Assembly: GCA_029762535.1 (NCBI GenBank)
Contig: JARVGK010000003.1
Location: forward strand, 32,001-96,000
Direction of reading: 5' to 3'
DNA from: Thermoplasmatota archaeon
GTDB lineage: Archaea > Thermoplasmatota > Penumbrarchaeia > Penumbrarchaeales > Penumbrarchaeaceae
DNA: 64,000 bases
Positions 6,692 to 15,672 of this stretch are shown here, piece after piece (the stretch's first letter is position 1; each line of letters starts with the position of its first letter). The position numbers and the translations under genes are program-made. The notes under the pieces are model-generated. The model did no database searches and had not been told where the DNA came from. It saw only the letters and a list, made by a program, of their open reading frames with translations.

Positions 6692-6736
6692 GGTTCCCGG
6701 GAAGGTTTTTCATTGCCAGAGAGGTTACCCTCATCG

Positions 6737-7399
6737 ATGGAAACGATGAAAGGCGCTCGGTCGAGCGATATCGGCCCGGACCTGTTCCGGAAGCTGATCC
6801 AGGAATACTTCAGGACATGCGTCGATCTGGGGTGCGGGGACGGAAAATACTGCTACGAGATGGCGCGAACCGATCCCGATACGTTCTACATCGGGATCGA
6901 CGCCGACCGCAACGGTCTCGTCGAGTATTCAAGGAGGATAGTGAAAAAACCCTCGAGAGGGGGACTGAAGAACGTCCTCTATCTCATCTCGAACGTGGAG
7001 TCACTCCCCGAAGAACTCAATGGGATCGCGGATGAGGTCACGGTCATCCTGCCGTGGGGATCCCTTCTTCAGGGTATGGTGGGGTCCGATCCGCTGTATC
7101 TTTCTAACATCAGGAGGATCTCAAAGGACGGGTCACTCCTGAAGATCTATCTGAACTACGACGTCAAGTACGAGCCCGTCGAGATGGAGAGGAAAGGGCT
7201 GCCGGAGCTCACCGAGGGTTACGTTGAGGATCACATGGTCCCGGCATACGCTTCTGCGGGGATCCGGATCGCCGGATACCGCTTCATGGAGAACGAGGAG
7301 GCCAGATCGATCCCTTCGACCTGGACGAGGAAATTGGGTTTCGGCAGGGCCAGATCGACCCTTTTGATCGAGGGCGTCATCGAGGGGGGATCCCCCTGA
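6737..7399 (+). CDS. 16S rRNA (adenine(1408)-N1)-methyltransferase, NpmA/KamB family
   Basis: DLGCGDG, FYIGID, KKPSRGGLKNV, ESLPEEL, LPWGSLL, GLPEL and STWTRKLGFGR match NpmA/KamB along the whole length; ATG 6737 aligns with the NpmA N-terminus. Confidence 0.88.
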   Translation: METMKGARSSDIGPDLFRKLIQEYFRTCVDLGCGDGKYCYEMARTDPDTFYIGIDADRNGLVEYSRRIVKKPSRGGLKNVLYLISNVESLPEELNGIADEVTVILPWGSLLQGMVGSDPLYLSNIRRISKDGSLLKIYLNYDVKYEPVEMERKGLPELTEGYVEDHMVPAYASAGIRIAGYRFMENEEARSIPSTWTRKLGFGRARSTLLIEGVIEGGSP

Positions 7400-7806
7400 A
7401 GGCCTCCTTCACCTGTCGTGGGCATCCCAACATCAGAGCCGAACACAGCCGGACCATCGAGTTCACGAAGGATAAGGAGCTGACCGAGAGAGGGGATTGT
7501 ATCATCGGCGTCTCCTGCGACTTCGATCCGGAGGAATTGAAAAAGCTCTCCGGGAAGGTCTGGATAACGGTTCAGGTCGATGAGATGACGGACGGGTTCC
7601 GGGCCTACATCAATCCGAAATTCGATCAAGACAGGGAGATCGTGTTCCGAAAGAGCCGGGTGAGGACCCAAAGAACGCTTGGAACGGACCTGAACAAAGG
7701 GGCCTCAAAGCTCGAAAGGTCCATAGTCGAGAGGATGAGGGATCCGAATGCCGTGATGCATGTCGTGCTCGAGAGCAAGGGGGGGGCATCCTATGGGAAA
7801 GGATGA
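7396..7806 (+). CDS. DUF371 family protein, apparent CTG start
   Basis: In-frame upstream extension of ORF 7537 reads FTCRGHPNIRAEHSRTIEFTKDKELTERGDCIIGV, the DUF371 signature; also IVFRKS and RTLG. Confidence 0.85.
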   Translation: MKASFTCRGHPNIRAEHSRTIEFTKDKELTERGDCIIGVSCDFDPEELKKLSGKVWITVQVDEMTDGFRAYINPKFDQDREIVFRKSRVRTQRTLGTDLNKGASKLERSIVERMRDPNAVMHVVLESKGGASYGKG

Positions 7807-8536
7807 GGTCCGGGGATCCTACGATTCCTCATCCGAGTATTGGCTGAAGAAGAGCCGGGTCTCGGAGAGGTATCTGTCCCTCATCGAGGGATCCCTCGGA
7901 GAGGATATGACGGTCCTTGACCTCGGATGCGGAGGGGGCAGGATGTCGTTCCTGCTTGCAGGGAAGGCGAGGAGGATCGTGGGATGCGATCTTTCCCCCG
8001 CCCTTGTGGAAGGCGCAAGGGAGAAGGCAAAGGACCAACCCGGGATGGTATTCGTCCAGGGGGATCTCGAATCGCCCTCGGCATGGGATGATTGTTTGAA
8101 GGCCAACGACGGGGAGGAATTCGATATGATCATCTCTAACGTAGCTCTCCGAAAGGACGCTTTGAGGCTGGATCGCGTCCTTGACAATGCCGGGAGCGTT
8201 CTCGCTCCAAAGGGAAGGATCATCCTTAGGATCGAATCCTCGGGGGATCTCCCGGAGATCGGATGCCCCCTCCCATGCTATCACCTCAGGGAGGTGCGAT
8301 CCTCCTTTGAGGAAAGAGGATACAGGATAGAGCTTCTGGAGGAAGAGCGCTTCTCCCAGAGGTTCTCCTCCTTTTCGGCGTTTCGGGATTTCCTTGAGAG
8401 GACATCCCTCATGTCGCATCTGGTCGAGACCCATTCCATGGACAAGGCCCTTGACAGGGCCCGATCCCTTGAGGGCAGGGACGGGATAAGAGTGACCAGG
8501 AGCTACTGGATCGTCAAGGTCGATCCCACCTTGTAG
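7793..8536 (+). CDS. Class I SAM-dependent methyltransferase
   Basis: VLDLGCGGG, GCDLS, FDMIISN, LAPKGRI. Confidence 0.85.
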   Translation: MGKDEVRGSYDSSSEYWLKKSRVSERYLSLIEGSLGEDMTVLDLGCGGGRMSFLLAGKARRIVGCDLSPALVEGAREKAKDQPGMVFVQGDLESPSAWDDCLKANDGEEFDMIISNVALRKDALRLDRVLDNAGSVLAPKGRIILRIESSGDLPEIGCPLPCYHLREVRSSFEERGYRIELLEEERFSQRFSSFSAFRDFLERTSLMSHLVETHSMDKALDRARSLEGRDGIRVTRSYWIVKVDPTL

Positions 8537-14376: not shown

Positions 14377-15672
14377 CTATGGGTCCACTCTCTCGATGAT
14401 AGCCGCGAAGAAACCTGAACGATCATCTCCTGGCATCGGATGGAAATATGTTCCTCTGAACAGATCCTTTGGAAGATATGGAACCATGCCATCCGCTTGG
14501 ACCGGGTGGAACCCTTCGTTCTCCTTGAGGAAACGTTCCACTATCGATCCGTTCTCCGACTTGTCCATTGAACACGTCGAATACACGAGCCTCCCGCCGG
14601 GCTTCACGAGGTCGGAATAGGTCTTCAGTATATCGTACTGGACCATCGGGAAACGTTCCATGTCCTCCTGTTTCAGGTGGATCTTTATGTCGGGGTTGCG
14701 CCTCATCGTCCCCAGTCCTGAGCATGGGGCATCGACGAGGACGAGATCCGCCCATTCCCTGTACGGATCGAGCGATGAAGGATCCTTGACGTGGAGCCTC
14801 TGATAGTTCCAGATCTGAGCCCTTCTTCCCCTCTGTCTAAGGCGCTGGAGGCTCCTCTCGTTGGTGTCCATTGATATTAGCATCCCCCTGTTCTTCATCA
14901 AGGCGCTCAGGGCGAGGGTCTTGCCACCGTTCCCGGCGCAGGCGTCCACGACCTTCAGGCCTTCGATCCCTGCAAGGGCGATCCTGCAGGCGATCTGGGA
15001 GGAGATGTCCTGCACTTCGATCAGACCCTGCCTGTACTCCTCGAGATCGTCGATCCTGGTCCCGTCCGGGAGAAGGAACGCATCGGGATCCAGGTCCGTC
15101 ATCATCGGGGAGTTCACGACCTTCGATATGGACCGCATGACCTTATCCCTCGTTGAGAGCAGGGTATTGGTCCTGATGCCGATATATCTCGGATGTAAGA
15201 GGGAATCGGCCAGAGCATCGTATGCCTTCTCCTTACCGAGGGAATTGATAAGGGTGCTTGATATGAATTCCGGGACCGATGACGATGCAATATTATCAGA
15301 TACATCTTCCCTTCTATCTATCGATGTGATCGCCGGTAATATTTTCGATCTCTCGACCGTTGCCTTGATGGCCTTGCGCCTCTCCCAGAAAAGGTCATGG
15401 TCCTTGGGCATCTCCTTGAGGAACACCATCGATGCCGCCATGGCAAGCTCATTTGGATCGGCGCTGCCTATCTCTTTAGTGAAAATATGGTGCCATCTAA
15501 GGTAAGAATAGCACGATATGGCCACCCTTGACCTGCTGCGATCGTCCAGATTAGAGTATTTAAGGATCCGGTGCAGCGATCTGTTGGATTTCTCCCCGCT
15601 CAATACCGATGTGATGAAATCCTTCAGGTGAGGATGGAGCTTGAATGACCTTTTTCCGGAACGGGGTATCAT
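14377..15672 (-). CDS. RsmB/NOP2/Fmu family RNA m5C methyltransferase
   Basis: VQDISSQ, DACAGNGGKT, DAPCSGLG and YSTCS motifs. Confidence 0.92.
   Translation of the reverse strand: MIPRSGKRSFKLHPHLKDFITSVLSGEKSNRSLHRILKYSNLDDRSRSRVAISCYSYLRWHHIFTKEIGSADPNELAMAASMVFLKEMPKDHDLFWERRKAIKATVERSKILPAITSIDRREDVSDNIASSSVPEFISSTLINSLGKEKAYDALADSLLHPRYIGIRTNTLLSTRDKVMRSISKVVNSPMMTDLDPDAFLLPDGTRIDDLEEYRQGLIEVQDISSQIACRIALAGIEGLKVVDACAGNGGKTLALSALMKNRGMLISMDTNERSLQRLRQRGRRAQIWNYQRLHVKDPSSLDPYREWADLVLVDAPCSGLGTMRRNPDIKIHLKQEDMERFPMVQYDILKTYSDLVKPGGRLVYSTCSMDKSENGSIVERFLKENEGFHPVQADGMVPYLPKDLFRGTYFHPMPGDDRSGFFAAIIERVDP

Follow-up and report, generated by a model that had tools for sequence, protein, structure and literature searches.

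A predicted 16S rRNA A1408 methyltransferase gene in an archaeal chromosome and its apparent coupling to a DUF371 gene and a second methyltransferase gene

The window analysed here is a stretch of 64,000 nucleotides (G000:C36:32001-96000) from the metagenome-assembled genome of an uncultured sediment archaeon (MAG G000; 2.96 Mb in 102 contigs, 93% complete, 1% contaminated). Three genes on its forward strand, encoding an NpmA-like protein, a DUF371 protein and an orphan methyltransferase designated MT3, are predicted from their arrangement to form a translationally coupled module (Table 1). The NpmA-like reading frame runs from ATG 6737 to TGA 7397-7399, and this ATG, not the TTG that precedes it at 6713, is taken as its start because the N-termini of homologues read ME(I/T)MKG. 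The archaeal host assigned in the first-pass annotation is borne out by a complete archaeal SSU rRNA gene on contig C14 of the same MAG (1513 bits) and by an A/V-type ATPase operon within the window, whose contig is 137 kb long. A gene for an RsmB/F-type RNA m5C methyltransferase also lies in the window, at a position that is conserved in the related contig L004, and there is no evidence that it is a member of the module.

Table 1. Features of the locus and of the contigs compared with it.
Feature	Contig	Positions	Strand	Description
NpmA/Kam-family class I SAM methyltransferase gene	window	6737..7399	+	220 aa; predicted 16S rRNA (adenine1408-N1)-methyltransferase; PF24675, PDB match, AF2 model
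G_GGG_GGA run	window	7384..7390	+	formal -1 slippery heptamer into the DUF371 frame, within the NpmA-like frame
NpmA-like/DUF371 junction	window	7384-7399
DUF371 gene	window	7396..7806	+	136 codons; 8-stranded barrel; PF04027 93.4 bits; PDB 3cbn E 1.2e-13
MT3 gene	window	7793..8536	+	247 aa; class I SAM methyltransferase, orphan; Methyltransf_31/25/11 domains
RsmB/F-type gene	window	14377-15672	-	NOL1/NOP2/Sun RNA m5C methyltransferase; 6 kb downstream of the triad
NpmA-like/DUF371 junction	L106	6898-6913		independent assembly, same arrangement; 95% nt identity over 7.8 kb; NpmA-like 93% aa identity
NpmA-like/DUF371 junction	L004	819-834		NpmA-like 72% aa identity
Triad	L016			NpmA-like 67% aa identity
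AbiEii-type nucleotidyltransferase toxin gene	L016	602-1453		directly upstream of the triad
Triad	L014			NpmA-like 57% aa identity
Triad	L015			NpmA-like 57% aa identity
NpmA-like gene and DUF371-RsmI fusion	L038	3219-5260		305-kb marine metagenome contig
Bacterial NpmA-family gene	L017	6001-6660		42% identity to the window protein

The coupling to DUF371 and a second methyltransferase that had been proposed at first sight stands as far as the stop/start overlaps go, which are real: the MT3 ATG at 7793 lies 14 nt inside the 3' end of the DUF371 gene. The DUF371 gene itself, however, has no canonical start. Its frame contains no ATG, GTG or TTG before 7537 (codon 48) and opens with CTG 7396, which overlaps the TGA of the NpmA-like gene as CTGA. 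The junction reads CTGA in the window, L106 and L004, TTGA in L016, and ATGA in L014 and L015, and the 47 codons upstream of the first canonical start are open and conserved at the protein level. Since CTGA is common to three independent assemblies and the upstream codons stay conserved, we regard the CTG start as real and rejected an assembly error as the cause of the missing start codon. The simplest reading of the junction would be that ribosomes terminate at the TGA and then reinitiate at the near-cognate CTG that overlaps it. Gene callers cut DUF371 to 89 aa in L106 and begin the L004 copy at a downstream GTG.

All three CTG-start contigs carry the G_GGG_GGA run, placed 7 nt ahead of the stop codon and 14 nt ahead of the last base of that codon. 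We considered whether it could direct a programmed -1 frameshift, creating an NpmA-DUF371 fusion like the bacterial ones described below, however, no stable or conserved RNA structure was found downstream of it (folds with z of -0.2 to -1.4). We set this candidate aside, granting it little chance at best, and the run is probably incidental.

The NpmA-like protein is, with near certainty, a member of the NpmA/Kam family. It matches PF24675 (Pfam NpmA) at 236.6 bits (E 2.5e-70; curated cut-off 60 bits), with residues 3-214 aligned to profile positions 2-213 of 214. NpmA is its best PDB sequence match (phmmer E 2.5e-46, identity ~40%), followed in order by NpmB1, CacKam, KamB, UncKam and Kmr. The gene had been annotated as of the NpmA/KamB type on colinear motifs over its full length, and the end-to-end profile match agrees; the gene is intact. 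TrmB-like proteins, the next family among the PDB matches, follow only at E >1e-3. The identity of TrmB (the tRNA m7G46 methyltransferase) was tried and rejected: TIGR00091 scores 35.1 bits against a cut-off of 112.65, PF02390 gives no full-domain match, and the match to the TrmB model covers only residues 17-94, the SAM-binding half. An AlphaFold2 model (32 homologues; pLDDT 94.7, pTM 0.91) was compared with the PDB using Foldseek, and the top 19 fold matches are all m1A1408 methyltransferases, after which TM falls to 0.61 or less. The best of them is NpmA itself (3MTE; TM 0.94, rmsd 1.7 A over 217 columns). Scores against the NCBIfam models for named resistance enzymes all lie under the cut-offs, at 152.8 vs 470 bits for NpmA (NF000030), 140.2 vs 350 for KamB (NF000363), 127.8 vs 460 for NpmB (NF040634) and 137.3 vs 305 for WarA (NF051863). 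By these scores the protein is none of these four enzymes, and since they are so far under the cut-offs, its function is extrapolated across ~40% identity.

The motifs singled out in the first-pass annotation are present as K70-K71-P72-S73-R74-G75-G76, P106-W107-G108 and S194-T195-W196. Numbering runs parallel to NpmA until about residue 170, and W196 aligns with NpmA W197. Retained are the SAM-binding residues D30, G32xGxG36, D55 and E88 (NpmA numbering; roles from PMC3061052), the aromatic clamp for the flipped adenine (P106-W107 and W196) and the basic beta2/3 linker. In the beta6/7 region E146, R204 and R206 are kept, the two arginines corresponding to NpmA R205 and R207, and K153 replaces NpmA R153. 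Ten residues (D30, G32, G34, G53, D55, N79, P106, W107, L110 and W196) are invariant in 32 diverse homologues. In NpmA, alanine substitution of D30, W107 or W197 abolishes activity (PMC3061052), R207, E146 and R153 make contacts with 16S rRNA and stabilise A1408 in its flipped state, and the basic beta2/3 linker and the E146-supported beta6/7 arginine have roles in 30S docking (PMC4705659). Activity and its control vary among Kam-family members (PMC4705659).

The presumed target is present in the host. The MAG holds, besides the 16S gene on C14 (L001), a second, divergent partial 16S 3' end on the 972-bp contig C71 (L002), which is either a second rRNA operon or a co-binned relative. The check for an adenine at 1408 that had been suggested gave the same answer in both copies, which read GCCCGUC-A-AAC and so have A at 1408. 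Both also have an A1409-U1491 pair, as against C-G in bacteria, and this pair may already lower aminoglycoside binding, which would weaken a resistance rationale. The four helices on which NpmA docks are reportedly, from the paper on the 4OX9 structure, h24, h27, h44 and h45. The core sequences of h24 (790 loop), h27, the top of h44, and h45 in the host 16S are identical to those of E. coli. The NpmA docking surface has been given as four 16S helices (Witek & Conn, PMC4705659), and NpmA footprints fall on helices 24, 42 and 44 (Husain et al., PMC3061052). One survey of archaeal rRNA modifications does not include m1A1408 among the helix-44 modifications it describes (PMC2584109).

The pairing of an NpmA-like protein with DUF371 recurs outside this locus. 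Among the best 150 cluster representatives, 8 are fusions of an N-terminal NpmA-like domain with a C-terminal DUF371 domain (343-380 aa), one of which stands for a cluster of 130 members that takes its name from a Dehalococcoidia bacterium. In the Kam tree the fusions turn up at no fewer than five scattered positions. The three fusion contexts examined are bacterial (with DnaN; with PNPase, MurJ and HolA; with EF-G), and MT3 occurs in none of them. L024 carries an NpmA-like/NUDIX/DUF371 operon that is the unfused sister of one fusion. Of 80 DUF371 loci from metagenomes most stand alone; in L026 the two domains are fused, and in L027 the two genes are adjacent. L038 and L044 each have an NpmA-like gene followed by a DUF371-RsmI fusion (TIGR00096 202.6 bits vs a cut-off of 167.9), and L039 has the same DUF371-RsmI reading frame on a contig that lacks upstream sequence. 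RsmI is the 16S C1402 2'-O-methyltransferase, which acts six nucleotides from A1408.

A DUF371 tree gave a similar picture. The window copy falls in a clade with SH-aLRT 97 and 14 rows, 12 of which are Kam-linked; of the remaining two, one lacks a Kam gene within 850 nt upstream, and the sequence around the other is too short for a link to be judged. The Kam-linked label requires 3 changes on the tree compared with 16.8 when labels are shuffled. Within the Kam-linked set G9, H10, N12, E22, R85, T94 and R108 are invariant. Because DUF371 is fused or adjacent to Kam enzymes and is also fused to RsmI, it looks like a dedicated partner of decoding-centre methyltransferases, although its role need not be specific to methyltransferases, since most DUF371 genes stand alone. 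The conserved neighbours of these stand-alone genes (RimK-like ATP-grasp, RNA polymerase B, asparagine-synthase-like and PCMT proteins) gave no consistent functional clue, a literature search on DUF371 returned an ECOD fold note alone, and protein-atlas look-ups of MT3 and DUF371 gave generic names only.

We think it probable that the NpmA-like enzyme methylates A1408 of its host's own ribosome. The alternative that fares best is that the Kam fold has been kept for another substrate unrelated to A1408 or aminoglycosides, be it a different adenine in rRNA or tRNA or a target that DUF371 specifies. Such a switch would suit the ~40% identity to characterised enzymes, the unlike 1409-1491 pair, and the constant company of DUF371 and an orphan methyltransferase, partners that the characterised members of the Kam family do without. 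However, the elements for docking on the 30S subunit and holding A1408 (the KKPSRGG linker, W107/W196, and E146 with R206) are all conserved, as are the docking helices of the host 16S, and RsmI, the other methyltransferase found fused to DUF371, also acts at the decoding centre. We consider another substrate unlikely.

To place the module, we compared the window with related loci. The triad occurs in the same order in 5 of 5 related metagenomic contigs (L106, L004, L016, L014 and L015), with genes that overlap or nearly abut (an 11-nt gap in L004 as called). Its flanks vary from contig to contig, and the chromosomal sites differ. In L014 the triad adjoins an FtsJ-ThiI-DCD-GTP cyclohydrolase II block, the ortholog of which in G000 lies on the 16S-bearing contig C14 (46-64% aa identity), away from the triad, so the triad has relocated as a unit. 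The ThiI of L014 has 49-56% identity to that of 22 of the 22 host-family genomes with a match and 34-42% to those of other families of the class, so the L014 organism is a sister or deep member of the host family. As the 57% identity between the NpmA-like proteins of G000 and L014 resembles that of the flanking housekeeping genes, the module is already old in this sub-lineage. A search of genome contigs for related loci returned a single match, a distant Acidobacteriota locus, and a profile scan of metagenomes with the module-clade alignment returned no matches.

Two further observations concern individual contigs. In L016, from an archaeal relative, the AbiEii-type toxin gene upstream of the triad shares 4 nt with the start of the NpmA-like gene. 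In the MAG itself, contig C73 (830 bp; L013) combines 470 nt that resemble C29:35118-35588 (80% nt identity) with a stretch of 89% nt identity to C36 that covers the 3' part of DUF371 and the 5' part of MT3. C73 is either a chimeric assembly or a strain variant with other sequence in place of the NpmA-like gene and the front of DUF371.

The distribution of the three genes in the phylum is narrow. PF24675 was found above its cut-off in 1 of 24 genomes of the host family, 1 of 37 of the class and 1 of 401 sampled from the phylum (262 of the 401 being at least 90% complete), in each case G000 alone, and it had no match in four archaeal control genomes. DUF371 (PF04027) and MT3 were likewise each found in 1 of the 401 (G000). 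Among the control genomes, those of Methanocaldococcus, Haloferax and Sulfolobus do carry DUF371. Across a database of 5.8 billion proteins, relatives of MT3 with more than 34% identity are confined to the module clade. Because each occurs in 1 of 401 genomes, all three genes are foreign to the phylum as sampled. The DUF371 gene had been taken at first as a mark of an archaeal setting, a view that is supported neither by this distribution nor by its place in a clade whose members are fused or adjacent to Kam enzymes in bacteria. In GC, GC3 and codon fit the three genes cannot be told apart from their neighbours. Against L004 and L016 the NpmA-like gene has a Nei-Gojobori dN/dS of 0.12-0.18, DUF371 one of 0.18 and MT3 one of 0.25-0.37, with dS saturated. 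The host-like composition and low dN/dS together show that selection maintains the genes and indicate that the import is old.

Homologues of the NpmA-like protein point toward bacteria. Searched exhaustively, 1.84 billion cluster representatives yielded 1014 matches at E <=1e-3 and 97 at 1e-30; all organism-named matches are bacterial (Nitrospira, Dojkabacteria, Eubacterium, Herbivorax, Acidobacteriota, Bacillota and Dehalococcoidia), as are all the non-module contigs that we examined around family members. A quick, unrooted maximum-likelihood tree built from 111 sequences groups the nine module-clade proteins together with SH-aLRT 99; their long-stemmed clade lies within an unresolved radiation. 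As the tree is unrooted and poorly resolved, a bacteria-to-archaea direction rests on parsimony. Two relatives are of separate note. The L017 gene lies inside an ffh-rpsP-khpA-rimM-trmD-rplS ... rnhB cluster, which suggests a housekeeping-type role for some Kam enzymes. P0140 (369 aa) is a natural fusion of an NpmA-family domain to a C-terminal GNAT acetyltransferase domain; the GNAT family includes aminoglycoside acetyltransferases, and P0140 may be a double resistance-type enzyme.

The gene had first been cast as either a domesticated resistance gene or an archaeal housekeeping modifier, and of these the domesticated import fits better. The second option holds that the gene is a native, ancient rRNA modifier, vertically inherited and merely homologous to the bacterial resistance enzymes. 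Its host-like composition, its purifying selection and the G000/L014 divergence, in step with that of flanking housekeeping genes, would all suit such a gene, and some bacterial homologues do reside in ribosome-biogenesis operons, such as the rpsP-rimM-trmD-rplS region of L017. An ancestral archaeal gene is contradicted, however, by the distribution just described, in which DUF371 and MT3 are as restricted as the NpmA-like gene, and by the bacterial identity of the organism-named matches and non-module contigs. We therefore judge native descent improbable.

A recent mobile resistance gene, or bacterial DNA mis-binned or chimeric in an archaeal MAG, is a more remote prospect still. The NpmA/Kam family is best known from resistance genes of plasmids, ICEs and antibiotic producers (PMC12271512), the MAG is in 102 contigs, and the triad of L016 directly follows a toxin gene. 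Nevertheless, tblastn of the NpmA-like protein against 72,556 plasmids (PLSDB) gave no match, and a Pfam scan of the larger flanking ORFs on both sides turned up neither a transposase nor an integrase domain. These results, which for the scanned ORFs agree with the first-pass statement that no mobile element is nearby, together with the host-like codon usage led us to reject an acquired mobile 16S-methyltransferase resistance gene. The 137-kb contig also carries the A-type ATPase operon. Against a bacterial or chimeric contig stand the independent assembly L106, which has the same arrangement at 95% nt identity, and L014, where the triad is tied to archaeal core genes in another independent assembly, which rules out mis-binning.

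The suggestion that the locus is relevant to where npmA came from proved weak, and that clinical npmA came from the archaeal gene or from one closely related to it is scarcely credible: NpmA is its best PDB and NCBIfam match, but at only ~40% identity, and with NCBIfam NpmA-model scores as a proxy for authentic npmA in the tree comparison, the Bacillota homologues P0139, P0025, P0026 and P0123 reach 228, 209, 180 and 174 bits vs 153 for the window protein and form their own supported clade, of which the separate, long-stemmed archaeal clade (99) is not the supported sister. Because the Bacillota proteins score higher and stand apart, the archaeal gene says little about, and in our view has no bearing on, the origin of clinical npmA.

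Together, the best reading of these sequences is that the module represents a long-resident, horizontally acquired decoding-centre methylation unit. We propose that it entered the archaeal lineage horizontally and whole, most likely from bacteria, and that it has since been kept under purifying selection and relocated as a unit. The NpmA-like enzyme would bind mature host 30S subunits via its basic linker and, with A1408 of upper helix 44 flipped out and clamped by W107 and W196, transfer a methyl group from SAM to N1. DUF371, made from the same mRNA, would act with the NpmA-like enzyme, and probably also with MT3, at the top of helix 44, where it probably helps to dock or regulate the methyltransferases on the 30S subunit. 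Constitutive m1A1408 would in turn make the ribosome intrinsically insensitive to 2-deoxystreptamine aminoglycosides of the kanamycin and apramycin types, and such insensitivity of the host is a likely consequence of the predicted activity. The selective advantage could be either resistance or ribosome tuning. The data themselves establish the family, the fold, the retained residues, the target base, the conservation and distribution of the module and the selection on it, whereas what the enzyme really modifies, what DUF371 does, where MT3 acts and which phenotype results are inferred. More tentatively, we speculate that DUF371 might be a dedicated 30S decoding-centre subunit shared by the NpmA-like enzyme and MT3, so that one complex, transferred whole from bacteria, would place m1A1408 and a second constitutive methyl group nearby. 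If true, this would be the first archaeal ribosome with a natural m1A1408.

Kam/NpmA enzymes make their hosts resistant to aminoglycosides at a very high level, and discussion of them usually centres on bacterial resistance. Here a member of the family is established in an archaeal chromosome, under selection and with its target adenine present, which raises the possibility that m1A1408 is a standing ribosome modification outside bacteria. The locus adds an archaeal, split-gene example to the recurrent Kam-DUF371 pairing, and that pairing offers a testable decoding-centre role for a domain of unknown function that is 20 years old. The pairing also suggests that many "resistance" methylases of the environment belong to rRNA modification units with more than one enzyme.

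Several known systems resemble parts of the locus. The closest is NpmA (E. coli ARS3 / Clostridioides difficile; PDB 3MTE, 3P2E, 4OX9), which has the same length, fold, key residues and KKPSxGG linker, whereas the window gene is chromosomal, archaeal, off mobile elements and always trailed by DUF371 and a second methyltransferase. KamB, Kmr, CacKam, NpmB1 and UncKam (PDB 3MQ2, 4RWZ, 4X1O, 7EHF, 7JLZ) share family and fold (TM 0.75-0.91) and, like the window gene, are chromosomal, intrinsic and from environmental organisms. Their hosts, however, are bacteria, some of them aminoglycoside producers, and no DUF371 partner is described for them in the literature we searched. The DUF371 of the window belongs to the same Pfam family as MTH639 (PDB 3CBN, 7Y7N), with the 8-stranded RIFT-type barrel and the conserved GHxN motif, but the stand-alone archaeal DUF371 genes fall in other clades and do not lie beside Kam genes. 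The bacterial NpmA-DUF371 fusions (Dehalococcoidia HIM59801.1, P0138 cluster) and the Kam plus DUF371-RsmI pairs (L038) join the same two domains, and the window DUF371 belongs to the same DUF371 clade as the fused forms. In contrast to the bacterial fusions, the window has separate polypeptides with a CTGA overlap, an archaeal host and the orphan methyltransferase MT3 in the downstream place. What is new at this locus is the archaeal host, the split triad with its orphan methyltransferase, the conserved CTG start, and the finding that all three genes are foreign to the phylum as sampled.
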